From the NCBI GenBank assembly GCA_002269645.1, contig NIVC01003457.1, forward strand, positions 1 through 37,953: a stretch of 37,953 nucleotides of DNA, in the 5' to 3' direction. This stretch comes from Macrostomum lignano. Taxonomy: Eukaryota. Positions 17,468 to 37,953 of the stretch are shown one piece after another (position 1 is the first letter of the stretch; every line of letters begins with the position of its first letter). A program made the translations under genes and the position numbers. The notes beneath the pieces were generated by a model. That model saw only the letters and a list, made by a program, of their open reading frames with translations, was not told the DNA's origin and searched no databases.

Positions 17468-17782
17468 GCAGGTGTCTAGGAACTGCATGTGAGTGAATAA
17501 TGTCTCAACAGGTGCGGGTCTCTTTCATCCCTATCTGTGTTTCTGTCTATTTTTCATCTTTCGCTGCTATTTTTTTGCCAGCTGCCTTGGCAACTGAGTC
17601 TATTGATTTTTTAGTTCCATAGTCTTCCTTTGTTATCGAAATTGCTTCTGTGCGTGCATTGTTCCCCTTGAGATGGCGTACTGCTCCGGGAAACGGGAAA
17701 CAATTTGATTTTTAAAAAAGCGATGCTTTAGGAAATATCGGATGGCTTTGAATCGTCGGTTTTAAAACTGTAATACACGGCT

Positions 17783-20700
17783 ATGACTGCTTCACGACTG
17801 CTTTCACTGCTGCCGTCGCTGCTGCTTCTGCTGGAAAGCGGTGAGTTTCCAAACTGGCATCGAATGGTTGGGAAGCGTGTGCGTTCGATGGGAAGGGTGT
17901 CTGAGCGATGGGAAGGGTGTCTGATTGATGGGAAGGGTGTCTGAGCGATGGGAAGGGTGTCTGAGCGATGGGAATGGTGTCTGAGCGATGGGAAGGGTGT
18001 TTGAGCGATGGGAAGGGTGTCTGAGCGATGGGAATGGTGTCTGAGCGATGGGAAGGGTGTTTGAGCGATGGGAAGGGTGTCTGAGCGATGGGAATGGTGT
18101 CAAGCGATGGGAAGGGTGTGCGATCGATGGGAAGGGTGTCTGATCGATGGGAAGGGTGTCTGATCGATGGGAAGGGTGTTTGAGCGATGGGAAGGGTGTC
18201 TGAGCGATGGGAAGGGTGTCTGAGCGATGAAAAGGGTGTTTAAGCGATGGGAAGGGTGTTTGAGCGATGGGAAGGGTGTCTGAGCGATGAAAAGGGTGTC
18301 TGAGCGATGGGAAGGGTGTTTGAGCGATGGGAAGGGTGTGTGATCGATGGGAAGGGTGTGTGATCGATGGGAAGGGTATGTGATCGATGGGAAGGGTGTC
18401 TGAGCGATGGGAATGGTGTCTGAGCGATGGGAAGGGTGTCTGAGCGATGGGAATGGTGTCTGAGCGATGGGAAGGGTGTCTGAGCGATGGGAAGGGTGTT
18501 TGAGCGATGGGAAGGGTGTGCGATCGATGGGAAGGGTGTGTGATCGATGGGAAGGGTGTCTGGGCGATGGGAAGGGTGTCTGATTGATGGGAAGGGTGTC
18601 TGATCGATGGGAAGGGTGTTTGAGCGATGGGAAGGGTGTTTGAGCGATGGGAAGGGTGTCTGATTGATGGGAAGGGTGTCTGATTAATGAGAAGAGTGAC
18701 TGATCGATGGGAAGAGTGTCTGATCGATGGGAAGGGTGTCTGAGCGATGGGAAGGGTGTTTGAGCGATGGGAAGGGTGTGCGATCGATGGGAAGGGTGTG
18801 TGATCGATGGGAAGGGTGTCTGGGCGATGGGAAGGGTGTCTGATTGATGGGAAGGGTGTCTGATCGATGGGAAGAGTGTCTGATCGATGGGAAGGGTGTC
18901 TGATCGATGGGAAGAGTGTCTGATTGATGGGAAGGGTGTCTGATTGATGAGAAGAGTGACTGAGCGATGGGAAGGGTGTCTGATCGATGGGAAGGGTGTC
19001 TGATTGATGGGAAGGGTGTCTGATTGATGGGAAGGGTGTCTGATCGATGGGAAGGGTGTCTGATCAATGGGAAGGGTGTCTGATCGATGGGAAGGGTGTC
19101 TGATTGATGGGAAGGGTGTCTGAGCGATGGGAAGAGTGTCTGATTGATGGGAAGGGTGTCTGATTGACGAGAAGAGTGACTGATCGATGGGAAGAGTGTC
19201 TGATCGATGGGAAGGGCGTCTGATCGATGGGAAGGGCGTCTGATCGATGGGAAGGGTGTCTGATCGATGGGAAGGGTGTCTGATTAATGGGAAGGGTGTC
19301 TGAGCGATGGGAAGGTTGTCTGATTGATGGGAAGGGTGTCTGATCGATGGGAAGTGTGTGAGCTTACTGCTAATTTTCTCCACTTGCAGGCCCCGTATCC
19401 GCCAGCCCGTGCGGCGTCAAGTGGACCTACGACAGCGGCATTGGGTGGTGCCTCCGGCAGTACGAGCTCATGCTCAACTGGGCGGAGGCCCGAGCCCACT
19501 GCGACAGCCTGCGCGGTCCCGCGGTGGGCGCTAGGGCCGCCGGCTCGAAGCTCAGCACGCTGCAAAGCTCGACTGAGCTGGCCGCCGTGAAGCGCTTCCT
19601 GACAATGCGAGGCAACTACGGCGCCGTGTGGGTGGCCGCCAGACGCGGTGAGTGTCCCTAATTATCCTTGAGTTCAGACCAACACGGCCGGCCACCAATC
19701 AGCCTGATCTGTAACGTTCAACCCGCAGAGAGCACAGCATCGCCGTATAAATGGGTCGACAGGAGCCCGCCAGCTGACGTGACCTCGGGCTGGGCGACCA
19801 ACCCAGGAACTGAGAACTGTGTCTTCACCGCCCTCGTTAACACAAAGGTCGGCGGCGAATGGACGACCTACCTTGAGCTGTACACAGGAGGCTGCTCGGA
19901 GCGGAAGCCATTCTTCTGCTACTACGAGGGTACGTGAAAATCCGGAGACATTATTCTAGCGTATTAATGTTAAGTTTTTCTCGGTTTTTATAAGTTCAAC
20001 AAAGCTACATTGAATTGAACTCGAGCTGCGTTCGAATAGAGGCCTGCATTGGCGTGACACTGAATAACATGGCTGGATTTCCATTCCGAAACTTCATCGC
20101 GTTGAAGCTCTCGGATGTTCCTCAGTTACATGATTTATCATTGAGAACTGAACCTGTGCTGCATTATTCATTTGTTTTATTTAATGAAAAGAAGAATATC
20201 TGTTGAAATTGCAGCCAAACGCTGCAGCCTGAGCAACCTCGCCGGCTACAATCCCGAGTCGATGGACCTGCCGGCCAAGGCTGTCCACATCGGCGAGGCC
20301 ACGGTGGCCGCCTGTCGAAAAGGCTACTACCGCCGCTCGGCCATGGAGGCTGCTGTGTACACTGGACAGCAGCTGGGGACGACCACGCAGTCCCCGGAGA
20401 GCACTTCGACGCCCGTGCCGAACGGCGTCAATTGCACCGACTCGATGAACAGTGAGGATCCCGAGCTGGTGTCTCCAGTTTGGGTGCAGGGCACCATTGA
20501 GTCTTGTCTCCGTGAGTTTTCAATTGTCGATATGTTGTGTAATTAGCTTTATTAACTAAAGCAAGCACAAGCCAATGAAGGAGCTGAAGCAAATGACATC
20601 ATTTAGGTCAGAAAGCCCACACACTCGAATATTATCTGGAAGTCTTTTAAACAGTCGGACGTCTCTAAATGCTTAAAGGGATGACGGCCTATGCAGCGGG

Positions 20701-23700
20701 GATGGAGCCCGGGAGTAGAGCTCCAGACAAACTAAAACTTGTCGGACCATAAGAGAATTAAAATTTTGAGACATCCCCGCTCTAGGACTCTCCCTCCGCG
20801 ATCCCAAAGGACAGGTCGAATGATGGGCACAACCACAGATCGTGCATGGGATTCTATACTTTCTCGTTTGTATCCTTCCCTACTCAAGTGGCGGGCTGCG
20901 ACACTCAGCCTCTGGCCGAGCTGGGCATCGACAACGCGCTGCCGTTTAGCGAAGCCCTGGTCAAGAGCGGCTACAAGTTCGGCGAAGGCTTCAACGTTAC
21001 GTGCAAACACGGCTACGTGTCATCCATGGATCCCAGCTCCAAGGTGGCCAGGGTCGCGTGCTACCAGGACCCGAGCCTGTCGTGGCTGGGCATCTGGATG
21101 CCGTCCAGCTCTAGCGTGTGCGCTCCGATCAAGTGCCTGGACATTCGCACGGTGCTAGCCAACTACAGCGGAGTGCACCCGGCCAAGGCCTACAACCACG
21201 AGCTGAACCGATGGTTCTCCAATCTGGAAGTGAATCGATTCTCAACCTACTCGTCCGAGGTTTACATCACCTGCAACTCGGTCGGTCAGTTCTTCCAGGA
21301 TCAGAAGTATGAGCGACAGCTGGCCTGTCTGGCCGAGAATGACAGCAGCACCACGGCCAGTTGGGTTGGTGTCCGAGGCACCTTCAGCACTGACGGCGTT
21401 ATTCAGAACATTCGCTGTATTGGTGAGTTTGCAACTCAGCTGATTGCTTGTGATGGCCTGCTTGTGTACCTGTTCACTGTGTCCGATCATTATCTGTTCA
21501 CCGTGTCTAATCACGATCTGTTCACCGTGTCTAATCACGACCTGTTCACCGCGTCTAATCACGACCTGTTCACCGTGTCTAATCACTACCTGTTCACCGT
21601 GTCTAATCACTACCTGTTCACCGTGTCTAATCACTACCTATTCACCGCGTCTAATCACGACCTGTTCACCGCATCTAATCACGACCTGTTCACCGTGTCT
21701 AATCACTACCTGTTCACCGTGTCTAATCACTACCTGTTCACCGTGTCTGATCACTACCTGTTCACCGTGTCTGATCACTACCTGTTCACCGTGTCTGATC
21801 ACTACCTGTTCACCGTGTCTGATCACTACCTGTTCACCGTGTCTGATCACTACCTATCCACCGTGTCTAATCACGACCTGTTCACCGTGTCTGATCACTA
21901 CCTATCCACCGTGTCTAATCACTACCTATTCACCGTGTCTAATCACGACCTGCTTACCATGTCTGATCACGGTACCTGTCCACGTACTGTGTCTGATCAC
22001 TTTATCAGAAAGAAAAAGAGAAGAAGCAACGGAGAACAAGAGACGTTCGAATAATAAAGGCCTCATTTACGAGCTAGCATGCATAAAATAGGGTTCCAAG
22101 GGGAAGTGTAAGTTGGCGGTCAGAAGATCAAACCAAAAAGCCGCATTTCGTGATTCTAACGCAATACTGATCACTTGCTACGCTCTACCCACCCACTAAC
22201 AGAGGTTGTGTGCAACCTGGTTGACCTGTTCCACCTCATGGAAGAGGGCGGCTCAGTGGTTGACCTACTAGTGAGCTATCATATCAGTGAGGGCATTGTG
22301 ATCTACGACGCGAGAACCAATGTGCTGAGCAACATGACCCGGTATCAGATCAGCTCGCAGGGCTCCCTGCTCTACGGCAGTTACATTTCCGTGACTTGCC
22401 CGTCTGACCGACTGTTTGTACAATCTGGCACTGATAAAGTCAACCTGGTGCTGAACCTCGCACAGATGACCATCACCTGCTCCAAGACTGGCAAGTGGAA
22501 CCAGACTATTGGCATGTGCATCGGTAAGTGTCCTTGAGCAACTGTAAGTATAAAATTTGCTGTATGAGAAAATCGAGCTATCGTTTCTAGTAAGTACACG
22601 GAGCGATTGTCCGATTCTTTGCCGGACATGCTCAGGGCTCAGGGCCCTGCGGAGTTTGGCGGAGGGACTGAGGGTGCGCCTGAGCACAGTGTTTGAGTAC
22701 CGGGCCTGTTCACCGTGTCTGATCACTGTACCTGTCTACTGTTACCTGTTCGCCGTGTCTGATCACTGTACTTGTCTACTGTTACCTGTTCGCCGTGTCT
22801 GATCACTGTACTTGTCTACTGTTACCTGTTCGCCGTGTCTGATCACTGTACTTGTCTACTGTTACCGGTTCGCCGTGTCTGATCACTGTACCTGTCTACT
22901 GTTACCTGTTCACCGTGTCTGATCACTGTACTTGTCTACTGTTACCTGTTCGCCGTGTCTGATCACTGTACTTGTCTACTGTTTCCTGTTCACCGTGTCT
23001 GATCACTGTACTTGTCTACTGTTACCTGTTCGCCGTGTCTGATCACTGTACTTGTCTACTGTTTCCTGTTCACCGTGTCTGATCACTGTACTTGTCTACT
23101 GTTACCTGTTCGCCGTGTCTGATCACTGTACTTGTCTACTGTTACCTGTTCGCCGTGTCTGATCACTGTACTTGTCTACTGTTACCTGTTCGCCGTGTCT
23201 GATCACTGTACTTGTCTACTGTTTCCTGTTCACCGTGTCTGATCACTGTACTTGTCTACTGTTACCTGTTCACCGTGTCTGATCACTGTACTTGTCTACT
23301 GTTACCTGTTCGCCGTGTCTGATCACTGTACTTGTCTACTGTTTCCTGTTCACCGTGTCTGATCACTGTACTTGTCTACTGTTACCTGTTCGCCGTGTCT
23401 GATCACTGTACTTGTCTACTGTTACCTGTTCGCCGTGTCTGATCACTGTACTTGTCTACTGTTACCTGTTCGCCGTGTCTGATCACTGTACTTGTCTACT
23501 GTTACCTGTTCGCCGTGTCTGATCACTGTACTTGTCTACTGTTACCTGTTCGCCGTGTCTGATCACTGTACTTGTCTACTGTTTCCTGTTCGCCGTGTCT
23601 GATCACTGTACTTGTCTACTGTTACCTGTTCGCCGTGTCTGATCACTGTACTTGTCTACTGTTACCTGTTCGCCGTGTCTGATCACTGTACTTGTCTACT

Positions 23701-25201
23701 GTTACCTGTTCGCCGTGTCTGATCACTGTACTTGTCTACTGTTACCTGTTCGCCGTGTCTGATCACTGTACTTGTCTACTGTTACCTGTTCGCCGTGTCT
23801 GATCACTGTACTTGTCTACTGTTACCTGTTCGCCGTGTCTGATCACTGTACTTGTCTACTGTTACCTGTTCGCCGTGTCTGATCACTGTACTTGTCTACT
23901 GTTACCGGTTCGCCGTGTCTGATCACTGTACCTGTCTACTGTTACCTGTTCGCCGTGTCTGATCACTGTACTTGTCTACTGTTTCCTGTTCACCGTGTCT
24001 GATCACTGTACTTGTCTACTGTTACCTGTTCGCCGTGTCTGATCACTGTACTTGTCTACTGTTACCTGTTCGCCGTGTCTGATCACTGTACTTGTCTACT
24101 GTTACCTGTTCGCCGTGTCTGATCACTGTACTTGTCTACTGTTACCTGTTCGCCGTGTCTGATCACTGTACTTGTCTACTGTTACCTGTTCGCCGTGTCT
24201 GATCACTGTACTTGTCTACTGTTACCTGTTCGCCGTGTCTGATCACTGTACTTGTCTACTGTTACCTGTTCGCCGTGTCTGATCACTGTACTTGTCTACT
24301 GTTACCTGTTCGCCGTGTCTGATCACTGTACTTGTCTACTGTTACCTGTTCGCCGTGTCTGATCACTGTACTTGTCTACTGTTACCTGTTCGCCGTGTCT
24401 GATCACTGTACTTGTCTACTGTTTCCTGTTCGCCGTGTCTGATCACTGTACTTGTCTACTGTTACCTGTTCGCCGTGTCTGATCACTGTACTTGTCTACT
24501 GTTACCTGTTCGCCGTGTCTGATCACTGTACCTGTCTACTGTTACCTGTTCGCCGTGTCTGATCACTGTACTTGTCTACTGTTACCTGTTCGCCGTGTCT
24601 GATCACTGTACTTGTCTACTGTTACCTGTTCGCCGTGTCTGATCACTGTACTTGTCTACTGTTACCTGTTCGCCGTGTCTGATCACTGTACTTGTCTACT
24701 GTTACCTGTTCGCCGTGTCTGATCACTGTACTCGTACCTGAAGTCACCATGTTTGATCACAGTGATTCAAAACGCGTTACCACTGAGCTATTCCACCCGC
24801 ACCCCGAATTGAGGGATGTATTGTCAGAGGGAGGGTAGAGAAAGGTGAAGCACCATTTTCTATGTTCTGAGAGTAGAGAGTGAGCCGTCATGATGAACTT
24901 GGTTGAGACCACAAAGGTATTAAGCGATTGGCCTGATGATTGCATAGCCTGATCACAAACTACCACTCCCACCCCGCGCGCAGAGAAGACGGCCGCTATC
25001 CAGCTCCTTGGCAGGCAGAAGCAGTACGTGCCGCCAACAACGGAAGCCACGGCAGCCTGGCAAACCGGCATGGTGGCCATCACCATTGTTATTCTATTCT
25101 TCACTTGCATTGTTGTCTTGGACCTGGCCACGATCAAGAGAGACTTCAGCCTGCTCAAAACCAACATTTTCTACCTGAGAATGAGACTGAAACAGCTTTG
25201 A
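17783..25201 (+). CDS. Type I membrane protein: signal peptide, C-type lectin-like domain, several sushi/CCP-like modules, TM helix, short tail (selectin-like architecture)
   Basis: Exons 17783-17840 (MTASRLLSLLPSLLLLLES), 19390-19647, 19729-19929 (CTLD: C...W...C, WAEARAHC, VWVAA, YKWVD, C..RKPFFC), 20215-20511, 20889-21422, 22203-22523 (CRKGY, CKHGY, ITC...W...C), 24984-25201 (TM GMVAITIVILFFTCIVVLDL). All introns are phase 1 GT-AG. AATAAA at ~25322 and 25351. Confidence 0.82.
17885..19352. repeat. 20-bp minisatellite (GCGATGGGAAGGGTGTCTGA)n, ~73 units, in intron 1 of the lectin gene
   Basis: Directly visible with unit variants. Confidence 0.98.
21470..22000. repeat. 24-bp minisatellite (ACCTGTTCACCGTGTCTRATCACK)n, ~21 units, intronic
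   Basis: Directly visible. Confidence 0.97.
22704..24731. repeat. 40-bp minisatellite (GTTACCTGTTCGCCGTGTCTGATCACTGTACTTGTCTACT)n, ~50 units, intronic
   Basis: Directly visible and highly homogeneous. Confidence 0.99.
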
Positions 25202-25384: not shown

Positions 25385-25560
25385 AGTAGTATGGGATAAC
25401 AGAACTCTGCCGCAGGAATTTCCGTGGAAAAGCCATGGGCCCTAGTGAGTGAACATACGGGCCTATGTAAATCCATTGAGCGACTCTGCCGCAGGGAAAG
25501 CCATGGAAATTCCATGGGGGGCACATCGGGTGGGCATGGGGGCCCGGTGAGATAACAAAG
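25385..25560 (+). repeat. Candidate left terminal inverted repeat/replication origin region with internal repeats and palindromes
   Basis: Starts AGTAGT (or AGAGTAGT at 25383). ACTCTGCCGCAGG occurs twice (~25404, ~25483), AAAGCCATGG twice, and CCATGGAA-A-TTCCATGG is a palindrome at 25501-25517. The partner TIR is not in the window. Confidence 0.55.
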
Positions 25561-25623: not shown

Positions 25624-25633
25624 TATATATAAG
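25624..25633 (+). promoter_or_regulatory. TATA-like box (TATATATAAG) upstream of the PC4-like ORF
   Basis: ~75 nt upstream of ATG 25708. Confidence 0.45.
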
Positions 25634-25707: not shown

Positions 25708-26436
25708 ATGGATCTCTGTGACGGCTTCAAAGTTCAAGTGCAAGAGTACGAAGGTCATCGCTTTATTGCAATCCGACGTTTCTTCTCCTCTGAAAGCGGG
25801 CTCAGAGCGGGCATCCCTGGCTTTAACATCAATGCATACCAATGGGAGAAGTTGAAGCAGCTGAAACGCCAGCTTGTGCACTCGGCAGTCAATCGGCACA
25901 GCGTCACAGTCAAGCTTGGCTTTGATAAACTCGTTGTGGTCAGCAGGGGTATCATCTGGCTGAAGCGCCTGCCGGAAGACTGTACAGAGGATTATCTGCG
26001 GCGGAACTCAGTGGCGCTGACTCCCCGTCTATGGGGAGAACTCTGGAAGAAGGCCGAGTGGATCGACAACGAGCTGCGAGAGAAGTCGGCGGAGAGTGAG
26101 TATCAGCTGGAGGCCGAGGACATCAAGCATGAGGGCCAAGAAACTCTGCCGGTCAGCGAAGAAGAAGAAGAAGAAGAGAAGAGGCTGCGCATCGTCGAGT
26201 CGGACAATGCAACCAGCTCGCCTGTTCTGCCAGAGACTTCAGTCGGGCGCATACCGCAGCAAGACAGCGACCTGTCGCACGACCCACTGTGGTACCGGTT
26301 CCGTGCTGCTTCAGGGCTCGGCAACAGCGGCTGTCACAAACGAAAGCTTCCGTGGCCCCTGCGCAGGCAAAATGCAATCAAGTTGCCCAAAGTGATCAAT
26401 GGTGGAGAGGATGGTGACGCAGACAAAAGTGCTTGA
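25708..26436 (+). CDS. Protein with two tandem PC4 (Sub1/p15 transcriptional coactivator, ssDNA-binding)-like domains and an acidic/basic tail
   Basis: Domain 1: FKVQVQEYEGHRFIAIRRFF...LRAGIPGFNINAYQWEKLK, matching PC4 VSVREFKGKVLIDIREYW...KPGRKGISLNPEQWSQLK. Domain 2: VKLGFDKLVVVSRGIIWLKR...LRRNSVALTPRLWGEL. AATAAA at 26563. Confidence 0.8.
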   Translation: MDLCDGFKVQVQEYEGHRFIAIRRFFSSESGLRAGIPGFNINAYQWEKLKQLKRQLVHSAVNRHSVTVKLGFDKLVVVSRGIIWLKRLPEDCTEDYLRRNSVALTPRLWGELWKKAEWIDNELREKSAESEYQLEAEDIKHEGQETLPVSEEEEEEEKRLRIVESDNATSSPVLPETSVGRIPQQDSDLSHDPLWYRFRAASGLGNSGCHKRKLPWPLRRQNAIKLPKVINGGEDGDADKSA

Positions 26437-26656: not shown

Positions 26657-27724
26657 ATGGAAAAGATTTACTTTAACCCTGAGCAGCCAGCAAGCTTTTC
26701 TGGCTGCAATAAATTTATTAATGAAGTTCGCACGCAGGGTATCCGAGTGAGTGAAAAAGCTGCGAAAAACTGGCTTAACGATCAGACAGTCTACACATTA
26801 CATAAGCCAGCAAGGAGGAATTATCCGAGGGCCCCAATCATAGTTCGAAGTATTGATGACCAATGGGAGTTGGATCTGGTGGAGATGATTCCTTTTTCCA
26901 AGTATAATAACGGCTACAGGTATATTCTAACATGCATTGATGTGCTGTCCAAGTACGGATGGGCGAGGGCATTAAAGAACAAGTCTTCTATTGAAGTGAA
27001 GTCGGCATTCGAGAGCATATTAAGAAGTTCAAAGCGGCAACCGCGCACTGTTCGCACTGATCAGGGGAAAGAGTTTATCAACTCTACTTTTCGCCAATGC
27101 TGTATGGAAAGGGGAATCCTGGCATTCCCAACCAACAGTGAGCAGAAGGCGGCTGTCATTGAACGATGGAACCGAACTTTAAAGAGCAAAATGTGGCGCT
27201 ACTTCACTCACAACAGCACTCTGCATTGGCTTGATGTGTTGCCTAAGCTAGTGAAGTCCTACAACAAAACATACCACAGAAGCATACGAATGGCCCCAAC
27301 GAATGTCAGCCAGGAGAACGAGTCCGAGGTCTGGATGAGCCTATATGACGGGAAAGCGATTGAAACTGTGGAAAAGCTGGGAAAGCCAAAGTTCAGCGAA
27401 AACCAGTCTGTGCGGATTTCCAATGCACCCAGGCTTTTTAGAAAAGGGTACAAGGCCAACTGGAGCGAAGAAGTGTACACGGTGGTGTCCAGAGCTCCAA
27501 AGCATTATCCCTACATGTACAAGATAAAAGACATGAAAGGAGAAGAGATTCGTGGGCTTTTTCACGAGCATGAACTGCAGGCCGTTCCGGAGTCGCAGCG
27601 GCTGTATGTGATTGAAAAGATTTTGAAGACTGAGAAGCGGCAGGGAAAGATCCGATATCTGGTCAAGTGGGCCGGCTACGACTCCACTGACTGGGTGGAT
27701 GAGAAGGACTTAAGAAAAGTGTAA
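26657..27724 (+). CDS. Retroviral-type (rve) DDE integrase with C-terminal chromodomain
   Basis: DQWELDL, TDQGKEF and IERWNRTLK (D-D-E); C-terminal YVIEKILK...YLVKWAGYDSTDW chromodomain. Confidence 0.97.
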   Translation: MEKIYFNPEQPASFSGCNKFINEVRTQGIRVSEKAAKNWLNDQTVYTLHKPARRNYPRAPIIVRSIDDQWELDLVEMIPFSKYNNGYRYILTCIDVLSKYGWARALKNKSSIEVKSAFESILRSSKRQPRTVRTDQGKEFINSTFRQCCMERGILAFPTNSEQKAAVIERWNRTLKSKMWRYFTHNSTLHWLDVLPKLVKSYNKTYHRSIRMAPTNVSQENESEVWMSLYDGKAIETVEKLGKPKFSENQSVRISNAPRLFRKGYKANWSEEVYTVVSRAPKHYPYMYKIKDMKGEEIRGLFHEHELQAVPESQRLYVIEKILKTEKRQGKIRYLVKWAGYDSTDWVDEKDLRKV

Positions 27725-27754: not shown

Positions 27755-28564
27755 ATGAGAAGCATCATCATTAACAGCGAAAATGCTGAAGGTACTCCTG
27801 CTGACTTTCATTTTCACCTGCCTTCACCTATTTACTTGGATCGAAATGTGGACTATGAGGCAGGTCTGGCTGAAATCCATCTGCCTGCTGCATGGTTCAA
27901 TGTTGACGAGCCTTACTGCTTCACTGTCTCAGATGGAAGAGAGCATGAGGCCTTGGTTCTTCAACCCGGACGCTTTGCTAGAGTGGAGGAGTTGGTGGAG
28001 CGCATGAATGAGCTGCTGGCCAACTCTGAGTCACTGTTCTTCGATGCAATGAGTGAGAGGGAGTCTGAAATGGAGGCTGATGAGTCTGGTTTAATGGGGC
28101 GGAGCAGCGCTAGAGATATTGGCATAAAGTTTGAGATCCAAGAATTGAGAACGGTAGTGCTCAACAACACGGCTCGAGCAGAATTATTCCTTCCATCAAG
28201 TAAAATTCTGCAGTGGCTGGGATTCGGAAATCAGTCCGTGAAAATTCCACCTGGGCGCCAAGTTTCCATGTACCACATTGGCTGCCCGCCCACCAATCTG
28301 ATCAACGTGCATTGTAGCATTGTGGAGTCAACTAATTGCAACTGGAATTCCCTGCTGCGAACTGTGAACATGAATCCTGAAGCCGGATGGGGAAGCTACT
28401 GGAGCAAAGTGTTTAAGAAAACAGTTTTCTTCCCCATTCAGAAAACAAATTTTCTACACAGCATTCGAGTTCAACTGCGAGACATCTTTGGCTTCTCACT
28501 GACTGCTCATAGCGGCAGCCCTGTTCTGCTCACAATTCTGATACGTGAGAGACCAATGCAATGA
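27755..28564 (+). CDS. Minor capsid protein (penton, PX-like)
   Basis: PADFHFHLPSPIYL...YEAGLAEIHLPAAWFNV, INVHCSIVE and IRVQLRDIFG motifs of Polinton pentons. ATG 27755 preferred over the in-frame GTG at 27737. Confidence 0.85.
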   Translation: MRSIIINSENAEGTPADFHFHLPSPIYLDRNVDYEAGLAEIHLPAAWFNVDEPYCFTVSDGREHEALVLQPGRFARVEELVERMNELLANSESLFFDAMSERESEMEADESGLMGRSSARDIGIKFEIQELRTVVLNNTARAELFLPSSKILQWLGFGNQSVKIPPGRQVSMYHIGCPPTNLINVHCSIVESTNCNWNSLLRTVNMNPEAGWGSYWSKVFKKTVFFPIQKTNFLHSIRVQLRDIFGFSLTAHSGSPVLLTILIRERPMQ

Positions 28565-28977
28565 ACTATCAGCAGCTGATTCGGCAGTATTCAGGGACTC
28601 GGACGGGAAATGAAAAGTCCATGCTCTATGGCTGCGGGAGTTTTCCTGGAATAATGACTTACCAGCCTCCTCCAGCACCTTCCATAACATCATCATCATC
28701 ATTAGCATCAAAGCCTGTACAAACCAGCAGTAGCAGCAGAAGCAATAGTACGAGTAATAGAAACATAGGAAATCAAGGACAGGCTAAAAAGGTGAATAAA
28801 AAGCAGGTGCGCATGAAGAAGAAGAAAAAAAGTGGCGAAGCACGCAAAACAAGCAAGGTCAGAACAAGCAAGCAACCTAAGAAAAGAACGACTAAAACAC
28901 AGGCCAAGAAAACAGGCAAAAGAAAACAAAAAGTGGGCAAAGAAACTGTGAAGCGTGTTCTGGACTCACTCTCATAG
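28561..28977 (+). CDS. Small Lys/Arg-rich putative DNA-packaging core protein (adenovirus pVII-like by position and composition)
   Basis: C-terminal half is extremely basic; lies between penton and hexon; ATGA overlap with the penton stop. Confidence 0.6.
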   Translation: MNYQQLIRQYSGTRTGNEKSMLYGCGSFPGIMTYQPPPAPSITSSSSLASKPVQTSSSSRSNSTSNRNIGNQGQAKKVNKKQVRMKKKKKSGEARKTSKVRTSKQPKKRTTKTQAKKTGKRKQKVGKETVKRVLDSLS

Positions 28978-28979
28978 CA

Positions 28980-30262
28980 ATGGCTTACGGATTCAACCCG
29001 AGACTCGATTTGTTCAAGTCCCCCGTGCTGCAGACTGCTATTGAAAAATCCACGTATGTTGATATTCACCCCGTGAACTCTATTTCTACTAACTCACCAA
29101 TTGAATTCGACTGCCATCCATCGGCTGATGAGTACACTGATCTGCTGAGCTCATTCCTGTATATTCGCTGTCGCCTAGTCCGGCTTGGCGGGGCTTTGAT
29201 GAGGGAGGAGGTTCGGAATGCCGATGGAGTTGTCACTGAGCGCAGAGACAGTGGGGTGCACCCAGAAAACTTTGTCCTATCTACGGCATTCTCAGATGTA
29301 ATCGTGAGCATCAACCAGCGCATTGTCTCTGGCGGAGACCAGCTCTACCCCTACCATGCCTACCTAAAAGCTCTCATGAGCTCATCCGATGCTCAGCAGT
29401 TAAATTTCTACCCCGCCGGATTCCTGGAACCCGAAACTGCTGCTGAGGGGCATGCCGAGAGACACAGGGAGTCCCGCTGGGTGGAGTATGCGGGACCGCT
29501 GCTCAGCGACATCTTCCAGTGTCCTGTTCTGCTGCTGAACAATTTACACCTGCACATCAAGCTGATGCCCAGTGAAGCTGCATTTGCCATCCGAACCCCA
29601 GATGAGAACAACACAGCCTACCGAATTGAAATTCCCATTGTATTCTGAACCTGCGCCGAGTCAAAGTGGCGCCTCACATCAGCCTAGCGCATGAGCAGGG
29701 ACTTACCAATCAGAACGCACTTTACCCCATCGAGCGAACCGAAATGCAAAACTTCATTCTACCCCAGGGAATTCAGTCAAAAAACATTGAAGGATTCACC
29801 CATGGCAAACTGCCGAAGTTCGTTATGCTGGTCTTCGTGAACCACCGAGCCTTCAATGGCCATCACCATTCCAGCCCCTTCGAGTTCCAGAGCTTCAACC
29901 TCAGCCAGCTAGCACTAAAGAAAGGTGGTGAAGCCATGTGCCACGCTGCATTTGCACCTGAGAATAATTCATTCGTGAGAGAGTACTTGCACTACCTGAA
30001 AAGCTGTCAGTCTGCCAGCCCTACCAACTCGGTTCCGTGGGTCCCCTACCAGTTGTTCTCCAACGGCAACACAGCTTTCGCATTCGATCTCACGCCTGAG
30101 GGAGCGGCCCTGTGGTACGGACAGAAGGAGGGAAATTTGCGGCTGGAGATTCGCTTCCGACAGGCCCTGGAGGAGCCTGTATCTCTGATTGTTATGTGCC
30201 TGTATGACTCACTGATTGAGGTCACGAAGCACAGGGAGATTCTGCTAGATTTTCCATCCTAG
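28980..30262 (+). CDS. Major capsid protein (hexon/PY, double jelly-roll), split by a -1 frameshift near 29633
   Basis: ORF 28980-29648 (STYVDIHP..SPIEF..DEYTDL) continues in another frame as HCILNLRRVKVAPHISLAHEQ..ALYPIER..GKLPKFVMLVFVNHRAFNG..SPFEFQ..FAFDLTP..GNLRLEIRFRQAL. Confidence 0.92.
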
Positions 30263-30285: not shown

Positions 30286-30824
30286 ATGGATGCTTTTCAA
30301 CTGCTTAAACTGGCTAAAAGCTTTTTGCCACAAAATAACTATTTAATTATTGTCTTGAATTCAATAAATAAAACATCTTATGCTTTAAACTTTATTCAGC
30401 GAGCAACTCTCAAAAGAAATTTATCTCGATGTAGTTTATTTTCTTTCTGCTTCAGTACGGCTCGTCCTTTGGTCACTGGGTGGTTTGTTATGCCAATAAG
30501 GAGAATTCCATAGAACTCTTTAACTCTCTGGGCTGGGACTCAAGCACTTTAGAGATCATTCACAGAGCACTGAAATCCTTTTGGTATTCTCCATTCTACT
30601 TACGTAGCAATGTGAATCGAATTCAGAGCTGCAACTCTGCTAAATGCGGTTTGTTCTGTCTCTTGTTTGCCTATCAAAAGTTTCGTTTCAAGCGCTCGTT
30701 TGAGTGGGTTCTGCGGCACCTCCATGCAAATCAGCAGAGCCACTTGAATGAAAGAATTCTGCAAAGGTTTGAGAGTTGCTTAAGAAAAAAAAATTTAATT
30801 AGACTTTTAAAATCAAGGATTTAG
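30286..30824 (+). CDS. Adenain-like cysteine maturation protease, split by a -1 frameshift near 30468
   Basis: GHWVVCY...ELFNSLG...RIQSCNSAKCGLFCLLF (His, Gln, Cys motifs of adenoviral/Polinton proteases). The N-terminal ~60 codons are in another frame. Confidence 0.9.
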
Positions 30825-30835
30825 CTCAACAGGCG

Positions 30836-31489
30836 ATGGAAACACGTGAGCGGATAAACTGTTATGATGTGCGCCTGCGACAAGGAAGCTGCATGATTGT
30901 CAGCGGGCCTACAAATGCAGGAAAGACAACCTTCGTGAAACATCTGATACAATACAAGGATGTCATGTTTGATGTGAAGCCTGGGAGAGTTCTGTGGTAC
31001 TACGGAATTTCACAAGCAGCACACTCTGAGCTCAGCAGTCTCGGCGTGCACTTGCAGCAGGGATTTCCCAGCAGTATCGAGACCGCACTGAGACCCAATG
31101 ACCTGGTTGTATTTGATGACCTGATTGAAGAAACTTCCAATTCTGCTGCAATGCGAAATGTTTTCACTGGAATTGCCCATCATTTGCCCTGCTTTCTGGT
31201 TATGCTGACCCAAAATGTATTTTTTAAAGGGAAGGAGTTGCGAACAATGAGTCTGAATGCGATGTACTTTGTGATCATGAAGAACCCCAGAGACCAGCTG
31301 CAGATTGCGGCGCTGGGCAGGCAGTGTTTTGCTGAGAAGCCCGGCTTTCTGCTGTCAGTGTTCAAGCACGTGACATCGCACGGCAGGGGAGCCTACCTGC
31401 TCCTGGATTTTCACCCTTCCACCCCTGATGAGCTGCGGGTCCGGGCTCGAATCCTGCCCAATCAGCGACCCCACCTGGTTTACACTTAA
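30836..31489 (+). CDS. A32/FtsK-like DNA packaging ATPase
   Basis: Walker A GPTNAGKT, Walker B LVVFDD, and HH..MLTQN..RTMSLNAMY..KNPRDQLQI..LGRQ typical of Polinton ATPases. Confidence 0.96.
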   Translation: METRERINCYDVRLRQGSCMIVSGPTNAGKTTFVKHLIQYKDVMFDVKPGRVLWYYGISQAAHSELSSLGVHLQQGFPSSIETALRPNDLVVFDDLIEETSNSAAMRNVFTGIAHHLPCFLVMLTQNVFFKGKELRTMSLNAMYFVIMKNPRDQLQIAALGRQCFAEKPGFLLSVFKHVTSHGRGAYLLLDFHPSTPDELRVRARILPNQRPHLVYT

Positions 31490-32579: not shown

Positions 32580-33425
32580 ATGAACTATATTGACTTCCAA
32601 GGCTTCCCACGCGAGAGATCGAGCAGAGATTTCGTTGTGAAGGAGCTAGCCATTGCCCAAGTCCGGGCAGGCAGTTACCATATCACTCATCACGTGTACG
32701 CCTCTCCGTTCTCATGGGAGCGAATCTCACCTGAGATGCAGGTGCATTACAGAAAGCTCTCAAAGAATTTGCATCATTTCAAGTGGACAGATGGATCCCG
32801 ATCGTACATGCATTTGGCAAATGACATTCTAAACATTGCTTACGGCCCCACCTGGACAAGCGGGGTGAAAAAGTCCATCTTTCTGACTGAGCTGCTTGGC
32901 AGACAGGTGTACAACCTAGAGGATCTGGGATCACCTTTGATTCAAGCATCTGATACTGGTTGTGCAGTGAAAAATGTATTGCTCTACTACAACTGGCTGA
33001 AGCCAAAGTTCTGTATCAACTTAAGAAGCGAGGTGTGCCCGCACCACTCAAAGGCTCTCAAAGACAGCACCACTGACAGAAAGGACTCTCTAAATGAGTA
33101 CACCTGCGACAGCCCTGCGAGTGACCAATCTGGTTGGCGGCGTGGATCTGAGGCTGGCTGGAGGCAGGGGTGCCCAGTTGCCTCTGCGGGAACTGGCTCT
33201 CAGCATGGCTCATGTCATCTATCGCCCCGTCTGGCCCCGAGTGCTCATCAAGAGGATGCGGAATCCCAGAGTGACTCTGTTGCTCTATCCGACTGGACAA
33301 CTGAGTATCTGTGGCGCCCGGAGCTACTCGGCCTCAGTCAAGGCTGCCCGTCGCTTCGTGGCTATGCTGCATCGCAGAGTTCCGCCTCAACTGCTGCCTC
33401 GTCAATCCGTTTGTGTCCGAATTAA
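32580..33425 (+). CDS. RNase H-fold DEDD/Maelstrom-like protein (first ~145 aa); the remainder overlaps the TBP-like ORF in another frame
   Basis: IDFQGF..FVVKELAI..HHFKWTDG..Y..GVKKSIFL..VYNLEDLG..CAVKNV..W pattern. The C-terminal ~110 codons look like off-frame read-through. Confidence 0.55.
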   Translation: MNYIDFQGFPRERSSRDFVVKELAIAQVRAGSYHITHHVYASPFSWERISPEMQVHYRKLSKNLHHFKWTDGSRSYMHLANDILNIAYGPTWTSGVKKSIFLTELLGRQVYNLEDLGSPLIQASDTGCAVKNVLLYYNWLKPKFCINLRSEVCPHHSKALKDSTTDRKDSLNEYTCDSPASDQSGWRRGSEAGWRQGCPVASAGTGSQHGSCHLSPRLAPSAHQEDAESQSDSVALSDWTTEYLWRPELLGLSQGCPSLRGYAASQSSASTAASSIRLCPN

Positions 33426-33660
33426 GACTATTACTGCTTATGGAAAAATAGACTTGCCCAAGGCTCTATCACTAAGAAACCTCTGTGAAGTGCTACCGAA
33501 TGCGAAATATGAACCTGAAAGTTTTACTGCTTTAGTTTGTCAGCTTCAATACTGCAAGTGTACGCTTTTTCACAATGGCTCATTTGTGCTCAGCGGAGCA
33601 AAGTCTAAGCATATGCTACAATCAGACCGTTCCCTATTAGCTTGCTTGCTTTCAAACTGA
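33094..33660 (+). CDS. TBP-like: Divergent TATA-binding protein (TBP)-fold protein encoded by the Polinton
   Basis: 188 aa, two internal repeats. Repeat 1: VTNLVGGVDL..LPLRELA..YRPVWPRVLIKRMRNPRVTLLLYPTGQLSICGARS..SVKAARRF. Repeat 2: IKTITAYGKI..LSLRNL..YEPESFTALV..TLFHNGSFVLSGAKS. Compare TBP [58 protein letters not shown] and YEPELFPGLIY..LLIFVSGKVVLTGAK. Confidence 0.9.
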   Translation: MSTPATALRVTNLVGGVDLRLAGGRGAQLPLRELALSMAHVIYRPVWPRVLIKRMRNPRVTLLLYPTGQLSICGARSYSASVKAARRFVAMLHRRVPPQLLPRQSVCVRIKTITAYGKIDLPKALSLRNLCEVLPNAKYEPESFTALVCQLQYCKCTLFHNGSFVLSGAKSKHMLQSDRSLLACLLSN

Positions 33661-33683
33661 AATAAATAAAAAGAAAGAATAAA
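33661..33683 (+). terminator. Clustered AATAAA polyadenylation signals after the plus-strand gene block
   Basis: AATAAA at 33661, 33665 and 33678, immediately after the TBP-like stop, in the AT-rich spacer between convergent units. Minus-strand AATAAA at ~34090 and ~34134 follows pPolB. Confidence 0.6.
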
Positions 33684-34220: not shown

Positions 34221-34269
34221 TCAAAGTAGTCGGCGCCGTTTTGATGATTTCTGCTGCTGTTGCTGCTGC

Positions 34270-34300
<31 letters not shown>

Positions 34301-34311
34301 GCTGCTGTTGC

Positions 34312-34380
<69 letters not shown>

Positions 34381-37300
34381 AGCAGCCGAATGTGACCAAA
34401 TGGGAGACTATAGTTAGGGCTCAGCCAAGCGCGCTTGTCTTCCCAAATGCTTAAGGCACACTTCCGCTGCTGCAAAGTGTACAGTCGGTGATGGATGCTG
34501 GCAATACGATGAACAACGACAGAATGGCTGCAGAGCTCATTGAACACCCTTAGGTAGTCACTGTGAGCCAGCTCTTTCTTAACAATGCATCCTTGAACTC
34601 CTTTGGCCTTCTTCTTTTCCGCGGCTTGGCTACTCGCCTTGAATGAGTAAAGCTTCGGCCTTAGGAGCAGCCACTCCTCAAAGCGAGCACCGGCTGCTTC
34701 ATCCTTAATGCAGCCAAGTCGCGCTTTTAAATCATTCGAGAATAGCGCGTGCTCTTGAGGATAGTTTGAAGTGTCGAGCAGCTGCTTCGACTTCAACAGC
34801 GGTAGAACTTTAGACTGAACGCTCATGTTGCTGATTGAGAGAAAGAAAGAATCGGTATCACCACCGCATAGCTTGATGACACCTCCATCGTTCTCTATCC
34901 AGGGCTTCAGTTTGTCGTAAAACAGCTCGTACATAATCATTTTCGAAAAGTCTAGGACGCATTGCCCGATAAAAATAGGCCGATCGAGCTTTAATTTTGT
35001 CTTTTGCAGTTCCAAAACGCTTAGTGAATCAGTAATTATGATAAAATTGGTAATTGTCGGCTTGGCAAGCAGTACCTTTACCTTTTCCACGTTGGTGCAG
35101 ACTCGAATATCACGCCGCTTTCGCACATTCTCCATAGTTTTGCCGAATAGCGCGTTATTCTTTAACTTGTAGAAATCCTTTTCGAAGTTGGTTTTCGCTG
35201 CAGCCCGCTTCTGGCTATTTTTCTCGACGTAGGCAGCAAAGAGAGGCTCTTGGTGAAACTCAATCATGCGATTGATGCGTCTAACCCGCATTCCATGGTT
35301 CAGGTAGAACGCCAAAATAGAGGAATGAACCACATAGGAAGGCTTATCGTGACAAGTGAGCATCAGCTTCTCTGTCGGATGATAGGTGGAGTTCTCCGTA
35401 CCGACCTTTTCCCACAGCTGCTGCATGTATTCAGGAAATTCCCTGAAATTCGGGGCAGCCTTTTCCGGTGCAAATGGTAGGTCTTCGGTGGTTTCGTGAA
35501 TCTCTGGGGGATACTCAAGGTCAACATCAAAGAGGTAGGCGAGTGGATCGGTTAGCTTGAGTCCTCGAATGCGATCTTCAGTCCACAAAAGCAGCTCATC
35601 ATCGTCCAGCCAACGGAATCCTCCGACTGGTAAGTTCATAGTGAGCGCCTGTCCATACAGGTTGTTTGCATCCACAGCAAGAAGCTCGGTGAGGCCAGCA
35701 TGAATAGTAGGAGTGCCACCATCAACATCCTCATTGCTGTCAACACCAGTGCTGGCGCCCGCTGCTGAGGTAGCCTGCACTTTGTGGATGTTAACAAACG
35801 ACATGCCGCCGCGAATGCCGCGCTCAAACAGCGAATACATCTGCGCATCTGTTAGCAGTTCAATCCCTGACTTGATGGATTTCAATGCCGAAGCGAATGA
35901 TAGGCCTGGTGTCGAAATAAAATGGACTGGATCAAGGCCATCCTCTTGCATGCTGATCTTGCGAAAATTTTCAAAAATATCAGCCAACTGCCTGATGTCG
36001 AGCTCGAGGTAGCACAGCATGTACTCTTTTAGATTTGAAACCTGAAATTCTCGCCAGGCGCGTTGAGCATGCTCATAGTCAGAGTTGGTGCAGTGGCTCT
36101 TAGTCAGAGCATTGTAGAAGCTCTCTTGGCTGGGAAGCACGGCATCCTTCAGCACGTCTGAATTTTTAAGATAGTCATACGGGAAAACTCCCTTGCTGAA
36201 AAGCACTTCGGATGATAGCAGTGGGAATCTGCTGCTGCGTAGGCGACTAGTGATACGACATTCAGCCTCTGGTAAATTTTTGATGAGCTGTGAGAGGCTG
36301 GCATTAAGAAATTGATTCGAATCAATGAACTGAATAGTAAAATTTAAAGGCTTGATCTTGCCCTCACTCTCATACTCGCCGATTTTAAATTCGATTTTCA
36401 TCGACAGAAACTGCTCTGGATTCAGAGGGATGACGGAGATTTTCCAACCCTCCATCAGACCCAAAGCGGATGACATCATGAGATGGAGATCGTACCCCTT
36501 GAAATTGTGGAACACGACGGGAAGGAAAGACCTCTTTAGTCTGGCCTTCATATTACAATCAGCACACGCAGCTCCCCGAAATTCTCCGCTGAGGTGGTCG
36601 TGATCCCAATGTTTATTGGACCCTTCCGTGAATTCGCTTCTACAATAGCAGCAAGCTGTGGCTTCTCTGAACTGTCGCCCTGCCATCTCTGTTCTTATCG
36701 CTGCTTGTCGACTGAACTCCGTGTTCCAGCCGTAAACTTCACGAGCGAGCTTCTCCAGCGATTGCAGGAAATCGGAAATGCACTTATTAGGATCGTCGCT
36801 GACAAAAGTGCTCACTTTATCATCCGCTCCTCTGGGCGCTAGACCAGTCATCCCTTCTCTGTGCAGCACGATGTAGCCAGCAGCAACAGCAATGTGCTCA
36901 GTTAACTTCTTCGTTGCTATACCAGCAATCGAATCTTCTTGGCATGGAGCATTCAATGCTTCGAAGTCGGCGTAAACAACAAATGGCGGACTAATTGTTT
37001 TTTCCCATGATGAGAATCGGAGAATATTATTCCTTTCATCTGGCAACTCTTCCTTGACGTTGATCACTCCAGGTTGACAAGGAGCTCGGCTGTGTTCTTC
37101 AAAGGCTGCATCACTATGAAAGGGCAGCAAGCAGCGCTCACACCACTTCCGCCGATGCAGAGCTGCCTTGCTATTAAGAAGCCTGTTGATGCTTGAAACA
37201 GCACACCAATGACCCGAGGCCTCGTCTTCTGATGGTGGAATAAATAAGAGTAGAACAACTTCTCGATCTTTAATTGTAGCTGCAGTAGGCAAGCGGAGGA

Positions 37301-37953
37301 CTTGAGCGCTCTCTTTCTCCCAGATGAAAACCGTGAAGCAAAGTCTCGGGTTCAGTCTCTCAACAATGGAAAGGTCGGTGACATTGATTGGCAAGTCAAT
37401 TCCACTCATGTTAAGTTCATCCAGCCAGTCAGTGTAGGAAGACTCGCGTTGCGCTGATTTCTTTATTTTGTTGTCTTCCTTGTGCAGAAAAGCAAGGCAT
37501 GCGTAAAGAAAGCAATTTACACCATTGCTTGGAGGACAAATAACCGCCTTCTTCCGAAGAAGTGGAGTCGGTAGAATAAATTCCGCAGCATGCCCCGTGT
37601 AGTAGGAAACTCGTTCGACGAGAGCTGAGTAAAGTTCAAAAAAATTGATTTTTTCAATTATCCAGCCACTACCGTTGGTGTTGTAGACATCGACTTTGCG
37701 CTCCAGCTCTGTAAACTGCTGTCTCCACCAATCATCAAACTCCTGTATATCTACCACCAATCCGAGTTGTGTGCTCATCCATTTATCCTCCCCCTTGACA
37801 GCTTCTGACGCCTGCACTCTGACCATGCGCAAATTCAGTTTGATCTGAGCTTTAACAGAGCAATTATCCGAAGAGTCGAAGCGAATTTCAAGACACTGCT
37901 GCACTGCGATTTTGCAGAAATCGAGAAACTCGAATGTTTCAGTGGCAGCTCCA
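34221..37953 (-). CDS. polB: Protein-primed family B DNA polymerase with N-terminal vOTU-like domain and Zn finger, EndoVII insertion and polyQ tail; frame open to the window edge
   Basis: ExoI VYADFE, ExoII FHNFKGYD, ExoIII YLELD; PolA DANNLYG, PolB KLKNNALFGKT, PolC GDTDS. NCFLYAC...GHW (vOTU), CERC..H..C (Zn finger), CCYC..DHDHLSGEFRGAACADCN (EndoVII). No stop between 37904 and 37953. Confidence 0.98.
34251..34379 (-). repeat. CAG/CAA mixed trinucleotide repeat encoding 42 Gln + 1 Arg at the pPolB C-terminus
   Basis: Directly visible and in frame. Confidence 0.97.

Follow-up and report, generated by a model that had tools for sequence, protein, structure and literature searches.

A Polinton in the genome of Macrostomum lignano encodes a genuine two-repeat TATA-binding protein (TBP), whose gene is fixed in two distant Polinton families. 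The DNA-facing surface of the protein, though remodelled, is its best-conserved part, and a recurrent 8-bp, TATA-like box ahead of the element's genes is a candidate target of this protein. On balance we favor a reading in which Polinton TBP is an element-specific transcription initiation factor that acts like the TBP mimics of herpesviruses, a view built on the observed fold, the presence of the gene in two families, the selection on it, its conserved and remodelled DNA face, and the box together with its position. The question this addresses is how animal Polintons activate their capsid genes, with or without a helper virus.

The window, by which we mean the whole 37,953-nucleotide stretch analysed (contig NIVC01003457.1, forward strand), carries both a protein-primed polymerase (pPolB) and a retroviral-type integrase, which identifies the element as a Polinton/Maverick (Table 1). 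Its 132-nt terminal inverted repeat (TIR), with AGT-type ends, is matched between the left end in the window and the end of a sister copy (L050), and an end motif of this type has been described for Polintons/Mavericks (PMC8097293). From sister-copy coordinates we infer an element length of about 15.8 kb, and the 5' end of pPolB and the right arm of the element may lie beyond the window. Many copies in this genome are broken; in another copy (L038) the protease slot holds an open ORF with a weak match to adenovirus protease (E 0.0026). The minor and major capsid labels are presumptive, assigned from gene order, and the core of the MAEL-like ORF gave a weak Maelstrom-like lead (cluster score 0.88) and no Pfam match. 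Four sequencing runs presumed to be RNA, all contigs, cover the element and also its terminal repeats and flank junctions, and may include DNA; they were counted neither in favor of expression nor against it.

Table 1. Features of the Polinton in the window, with positions counted from the first nucleotide of the window.
Feature	Position	Strand	Remarks
Left TIR, 132 nt, begins AGTAGT	25385..25516	+	93% match to other end of sister copy L050; other flanks join at 25385
Canonical TATA box TATATAAG	25626..25633	+	ahead of PC4-like gene
PC4-like ORF	25708..26436	+	PF02229 E 3e-4, below cut-off
Box CTTAAGAA	26615..26622	+	42 nt ahead of integrase
Retroviral-type integrase with chromodomain	26657..27724	+	PF00665, PF00385
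Box CTTAAGAA	27709..27716	+	46 nt ahead of putative minor capsid gene, within integrase end
Putative minor capsid protein	27755..28564	+	no Pfam match; position conserved in families A and B
Basic Lys/Ser-rich ORF	28561..28977	+	no preceding box
Box variant CCTAAGAA	28876..28883	+	104 nt ahead of putative major capsid gene; CTTAAGAA in diverged subfamily
Putative major capsid gene	28980..30262	+	two frames in this copy; no Pfam match
Protease gene	30288..30824	+	broken in this copy; no preceding box
Box CTTAAGAA	30779..30786	+	57 nt ahead of ATPase
P-loop ATPase, putative packaging ATPase	30836..31489	+	weak AAA-type matches only
Box CTTAAGAA	31485..31492	+	spans ATPase stop codon, 52 nt ahead of 105-aa ORF
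ORF, 105 aa	31537..31854	+	no Pfam match
ORF, 230 aa	31847..32539	+	no preceding box in this copy; weak match in clade C
Box variant TTTAAGAA	32522..32529	+	58 nt ahead of MAEL-like ORF; TATATAAGAA in 7 of 9 aligned diverged-subfamily loci
MAEL-like ORF, 281 aa	32580..33425	+	core of about 170 aa plus tail over TBP codons 1-110 in another frame
Box CTTAAGAA	33020..33027	+	74 nt ahead of TBP ATG, within MAEL-like ORF
TBP-fold gene, 188 aa	33094..33660	+	two repeats; frame intact in this copy
Overlapping AATAAA signals	33661..33670	+	directly past TBP stop; from sequence
pPolB, protein-primed, with endonuclease VII-like domain	34221..37826	-	PF03175, PF02945

The TBP gene is an intronless ORF whose ATG lies immediately 3' of an in-frame stop and about eight residues ahead of the first strand of the fold. 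It is the final plus-strand gene, convergent with pPolB, and its placement, the AATAAA that follows and the lack of an N-terminal extension are all as an earlier, sequence-only reading of this DNA had described. The same reading had proposed a two-repeat TBP saddle, and here too the data bear it out: the ORF has two PF00352 matches (E 1.3e-22; 79.8 bits, the cut-off being 22.9), 35 of 35 solved-structure matches are TBP chains or TBP fusions, and an AlphaFold2 model, built from a TBP-rich alignment of 88 rows, has a pLDDT of 96.1. A Foldseek search with this model places human TBP first (TM 0.81), with human, archaeal and fungal TBPs leading the list and named giant-virus TBPs ranking below the cellular proteins; TM values of 0.75-0.84 to TBP chains identify the saddle fold. 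The ESM Atlas returned generic TBP clusters only, at a recognition value under its threshold. The reading had staked its claim on a TBP fold being found, and both the profile search and AlphaFold2/Foldseek returned one, confirming that the ORF encodes a genuine two-repeat TBP.

A search of the genome gave at least 151 TBP matches, fragments included (the best 150 of 228 candidates were scored), and at least seven of those listed are identical to the window TBP. Host TBP and a TRF2-like host gene were each found at three places in the assembly (L031:1710-2366 and L032:1342-2514, each a single open frame), so that insertions are fewer than matches; at least two copies carrying an identical TBP have different flanks. 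Besides family A, represented by the window copy, a family B carries a TBP in the same slot that is 36% identical to the window protein, the two families being 42% alike in ATPase and 54-61% alike in integrase, and a family-B TBP lies nearby on 26 of 28 family-B ATPase contigs (compared by eye). Both a MAEL-like neighbor and an open TBP frame are present in all 45 TBP-bearing loci fetched (27 distinct), which, as best-scoring or hand-picked matches, are biased to intact copies.

Comparison with the window gene yields dN/dS values of 0.20-0.32 for every one of the 22 diverged coding sequences from family A (p ≤3e-9 each, the sequences being related and not independent), 0.27-0.29 in two near-identical family-A sequences (p 0.06 and 0.09), and 0.35-0.42, near saturation, in two from family B. 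Polinton TBP is 26% identical to host TBP and 22% to the host TRF2-like protein, and the source of a database protein 75% identical to it gives the organism as Macrostomum lignano. The family A and B proteins form, in a tree of 44 rows, one clade with three unplaced database proteins (100/99) on a long stem, and the proteins P0002-P0004, P0009 and P0023, database entries that come without gene context, cluster with Polinton TBPs in the trees. Placing the clade beside host TBP is rejected at p-AU 0.016 and beside TRF2 at p-AU 0.030 (with a long-branch caveat), and neither the 44-row tree nor a 131-row quick tree indicates a donor. TBP thus belongs to the fixed genes of two distant Polinton families and is no fresh retrocopy; the recent host copy with dN/dS near 1 that the sequence-only reading had set against its own proposal is replaced by a divergent protein under constraint on a branch of its own. 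The check that it proposed, for TBP-like ORFs next to Polinton genes, finds them in families A and B of this genome; in the viral contigs scanned, queries with the window protein, P0011, P0027, P0097 and P0029 gave no relatives with gene context. One metagenome match (L053, query P0009) covered 35 residues only and was judged spurious.

Two further observations concern the history of such genes. A second clade of short TBPs (99/97; P0029, P0087, P0091, P0097, P0172 and P0173) shares Thr at 159 and 161 with the Polinton proteins, and its members, some of them on contigs of 9-19 kb, are candidates for other element-borne TBPs; the 44-row tree gives no supported union of this clade with the Polinton TBPs. 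Within the TBP gene itself, a recombination junction lies between the two repeats at 33390-33410: in several copies, similarity to the window is 93-100% upstream of it and 62-80% downstream, with pPolB only about 58% alike there, and repeat 2 travels with the polymerase arm in these recombinants.

We next consider the DNA face, using 15 base-contact residues drawn from Table 1 of PMC12529657 and section 4 of PMC12209930, the portions of those papers available to us, and yeast numbering (host TBP position plus 59). Only six of the 15 contacts in Polinton TBP are identical to host TBP, against a median of 13 among 94 other matches. Relative to cellular TBP the changes are F99P, F116Y, V122S, T124C, N159T, V161T, P191T, L205T and T215S, and N69, V71, L114, F190, V213, F207 and the stirrup residues E186/E188 are retained; a short insertion follows strand 1. 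The canonical set of four intercalating Phe is reduced to two, with one Tyr and one Pro in the other places. As the sequence-only reading had it, the repeat-2 Phe are kept (F144 and F159, yeast F190 and F207) and the repeat-2 Asn is replaced by Thr. Its claim that other aromatics replace the Phe of repeat 1 is right for F116, now Tyr, and does not simply hold for F99, whose place in an ungapped alignment is occupied by Pro48, with W47 of the YRPVW motif at position 98; three of the four aromatic positions remain aromatic. Likewise, the face is altered, as that reading said, but both repeats are remodelled rather than repeat 1 alone.

Across six deep rows, eight of the 15 base-contact positions are invariant versus 22 of 142 others (Fisher p 0.002), with F116Y, T124C and N159T among the invariant new states, so that the DNA-facing surface, though remodelled, is the best-conserved part of the protein. 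TBP and TFIIB are a textbook pair, and the glutamates E140 and E142, which correspond to yeast E186 and E188, are present in the sequences of 13 of 13 clade rows; on this evidence the acidic C-terminal stirrup for TFIIB appears intact, where E186 is a contact that we assume from our own mapping. The available part of the contact-residue source writes the TFIIB-contact glutamates as E184 and E188. P191, which according to the accessible part of PMC12529657 favors T at position 1 of the TATA box, has given way to Thr, Ser or Asn in all 13 element-type rows. Such a surface fits a factor that may still bind DNA and TFIIB with another sequence preference; the loss of F99 and the nine of 15 differing contacts could also mean weak or no DNA binding. 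Conservation of the altered DNA face makes the dominant-negative role that the earlier reading had offered as an option, in its pure form, less likely.

Inspection of the regions ahead of the element's genes revealed a feature that the sequence-only reading had missed, a conserved 8-bp box, mostly CTTAAGAA, that lies 42-104 nt ahead of seven of the 11 genes. Each of the five CTTAAGA sites of the element is a plus-strand site at a distance of 42-74 nt from the start that follows it, and variants precede two further genes; the occurrence of TAAGAA before seven of 11 starts has a P of about 7e-4 versus the best k-mer in 3000 random placements, and the raw count of CTTAAGA in the window is at chance (6 vs 7.4 expected). 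All 13 further family-A loci in the alignment keep the box ahead of TBP, and boxes persist, their flanks drifting, in a subfamily about 75% alike in DNA; conservation spans eight bases, in a column count that, of the two sites at the TBP gene, used the incorrect one. Boxes that fall in coding sequence force Leu-Arg to be written TTA-AGA, a spelling used by three of 26 Leu-Arg pairs in the window (1.5% expected), two of them at boxes, and by three of 21 in L038, all at boxes. Family B has TAAGAA before four of eight genes (P 2e-4 with the motif fixed beforehand) and TATAAAAG before its TBP gene; an unprompted k-mer test was not significant in families B and D. Canonical TATA boxes precede the PC4-like gene in both families and the right-arm ORF in family A. 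The box is absent before four of the 11 genes, one of which has a canonical TATA, and is carried by the integrase, the MAEL-like gene and the family-A TBP, and there is therefore no clean late gene set. In two cases a box-like site is as close as 12 or 28 nt to the ATG that it precedes. A length of 8 bp and a spacing of mostly 35-110 nt fit a TBP site, which makes the box a candidate target of Polinton TBP.

A third Polinton clade of the same genome, C/D (ATPase 33-34% alike; 58 places), carries boxes as well. Reading 8.5 and 6.6 kb of it revealed no TBP, and not one of its 58 places is near a listed TBP match (judged by eye among the searches' best 150 or fewer candidates, for example 150 of 164); clade C/D and TBP matches share two contigs, on both of which they are more than 250 kb apart. 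TATAAGC stands before four of seven genes in clade C (P 0.008) and TAAG before four of seven in clade D (P 0.04), and TAAG is the part common to the boxes of all four families examined. Since TATAAGC boxes occur in this clade, where the search turned up no TBP, a box can exist without Polinton TBP, and the TAAG-type box would be older than, or independent of, the protein, unless a C/D TBP was missed. Position 1 of the box is mostly T in C/D, mostly C in A and mixed in B, a change from T to C that parallels, in a single lineage contrast, the loss of the T-favoring P191 in TBP carriers. Judging by the contacts of TBP with DNA, V122S could admit G at box position 6; C/D boxes carry that G too. 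Clade C/D (L051, L052) further differs in gene order and has a dUTPase and an adenovirus protein X-like ORF, and additional integrase groups, 33-35% alike, are present in the genome.

If Polinton TBP is an initiation factor, host TBP would first read the canonical TATA boxes at the element arms, and the TBP gene would first be switched on through a TATA-like form of the MAEL promoter in family A or directly from a TATA in family B. Once made, Polinton TBP would bind the CTTAAGAA-type box in the minor groove and, through its intact acidic stirrup, recruit host TFIIB, thereby placing host Pol II at the genes for the integrase, the capsid module and TBP with a presumed early-to-late timing; in family A it would also drive its own gene. 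The combination of a TBP with a matching TATA-like box suggests a built-in switch for element genes. A more specific proposal, to which we give a little less than an even chance, is a one-protein switch in which the DNA face of TBP co-evolved with an ancestral TATAAG-type box into a private pair (with CTTAAGAA) that still uses host TFIIB and Pol II. If true, animal Polintons would possess an expression programme that needs no helper, and nature would have supplied a TBP-promoter pair of altered specificity; a sister clade without TBP, present in the same genome, would serve as the control.

The same features can be read differently. It is possible, but in our view unlikely, that host TBP or another host factor reads the box, and that Polinton TBP has no sequence target of its own and acts as a decoy or booster by soaking up TFIIB or TBP regulators (host shut-off, dominant-negative). 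The boxes of clade C/D, the invariant TFIIB glutamates and the loss of F99 are in keeping with this, as is the loss of DNA contacts in TRF2-type proteins (the host protein at L032 keeps seven of 15); against it, the altered DNA-facing residues are better conserved than the remainder of the protein, and the family-A box departs from TATA at positions 1, 2 and 6, which presumably makes it a poor site for host TBP.

The TAAG motif is that of baculovirus late promoters, and the TAAG common to all four families might be an initiator for an RNA polymerase supplied by a large DNA virus acting as helper, with TBP serving another step. We consider this quite improbable: the two sites at 12 and 28 nt before an ATG would suit it, and related small viruses are described, in the part of the literature available to us, as borrowing helper promoters, but the majority of sites lie at least 35 nt before the ATG, conservation extends over 8 bp and not 4-5, and both the AATAAA signals and the canonical TATA boxes suggest host Pol II. 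Decidedly improbable, too, is binding of element DNA for another purpose: the protein might recruit Pol III or Pol I, or it might bend DNA or bind single strands during replication or packaging. A role of this kind has been proposed for the divergent Giardia TBP, which has most contacts changed and binds single-stranded DNA (PMC12209930, in its accessible part), and the movement of repeat 2 with the pPolB arm would be in line with such a role; the three aromatic positions that remain aromatic, the intact TFIIB stirrup and a TATA-like box of the right size speak against it. A captured host TBP copy riding as a neutral passenger has nothing in its favor beyond the many broken element copies and is already refuted, to our minds nearly beyond doubt, by selection and age (dN/dS 0.20-0.32, the same slot in two families with ATPases 42% alike, and the rejected sisterhood with host TBP/TRF2 at p-AU 0.016 and 0.030).

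For the favored role as an initiation factor, the closest working model is herpesvirus ORF24. According to the accessible part of PMC12529657, the herpesvirus TBP mimics (KSHV ORF24, EBV BcRF1 and HCMV UL87, which use a TATT late box) are likewise TBP-fold proteins of a nuclear DNA virus without its own polymerase, with a more polar DNA face and a variant box, and V122, T124, V161 and T215 are changed both in them and in Polinton TBP. The same portion of that paper describes ORF24 as keeping all four Phe and the Pro, unlike Polinton TBP, and as lacking the TFIIB glutamates, binding Pol II directly and needing five partners. Polinton TBP is in contrast a bare 188-aa core that retains the glutamates and would use another box, and so departs from the herpesvirus late pre-initiation complex, with its large TBP mimic bearing a Pol II-binding domain, TATT box and five partner proteins (for partners, the comparison covered Pfam matches); the two are likened by fold only, and Polinton TBP would parallel the mimics by a simpler route. 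Cellular TBPs (eukaryotic TBP, TRF2/TLF and archaeal TBP) share the two-repeat saddle at a TM of about 0.8, the Polinton protein differing in being borne by a mobile element and only 26% identical to host TBP. Most giant viruses with TBP-like genes encode their own RNA polymerase. A viral TBP fold is shared with giant-virus and mirusvirus proteins, including BFVD matches, and TBP-like genes are carried by African swine fever virus (ASFV B263R) and mirusvirus-like elements in the available parts of PMC5825884 and PMC10675990; named giant-virus TBPs are 6-14% identical to Polinton TBP and structurally further from it than cellular TBPs.

With Polintons, Mavericks and adintoviruses (PMC8097293; PMC8502044, in part) the element shares pPolB, a chromodomain integrase and an AGTAGT TIR, to which a putative ATPase and protease, seen as weak matches, and putative capsids may be added. 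The eight genes that make up the core set of vertebrate Polintons do not include TBP (Barreat and Katzourakis 2021, PMC8097293), and VLTF3 has been reported in some polintoviruses and PLVs, in sources available in part. The sequence-only reading was not aware of TBP as a described Polinton gene; the accessible part of Starrett et al. 2021 (PMC8502044) lists TBP in the Figure 5 legend for an adintovirus-like element, and what stands is that no text was found that treats it as routine or analyses it. TBP and TATA are absent from the main text of PMC11071308, PMC11071296, 10.64898/2026.06.19.733378, 10.64898/2026.10.13.758929, PMC11131425, PMC10748475, 10.1101/2022.05.25.493380 and PMC8097293, and a search of openly accessible papers and the main texts of preprints gave no analysis of Polinton TBP (selection, DNA face) or of a promoter box. 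The Polinton TBP label itself is thus already published, and the 8-bp box ahead of element genes is new here. With a self-encoded TBP and a defined 8-bp box, the question of capsid-gene activation becomes directly testable, one oligonucleotide and one small protein being enough. Polinton promoters may be annotated with the help of the TAAG-type box that four families carry, and the protein offers a case supplied by nature for seeing how TATA specificity depends on the contact residues of TBP.

Several minor observations concern the element and its surroundings. The MAEL-like frame, whose overlap with TBP the sequence-only reading does not mention, stays open over TBP codons 1-110 (33094-33425) in 25 of 25 distinct family-A sequences and for 90 and 129 codons in two family-B sequences (chance 0.016-0.026 per lineage). 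Silent change is about 0.3 in the overlap, a modest reduction from the 0.5 of the MAEL-like core and the 0.4 of the ATPase. Outside the window, the right arm of the sister copy (L050:2347-3567) holds a 406-aa ORF with CxxC pairs, an LxCxE motif, a repeat and an acidic part, preceded by a canonical TATA box at -102, which fits Starrett's 'Oncoid' description. The pPolB frame terminates in a long glutamine-coding triplet repeat (34240-34385), and several element copies contain inserted foreign sequences (L034:3638-4646, L036, L041 and L045), one of them with an integrase-like ORF. To the left of the element lie long tandem arrays of 20- and 40-nt units (17700-24730), and the minus strand at 1155-5267 carries exon-like ORFs of what we take, from their motifs, to be a cadherin-repeat host gene.
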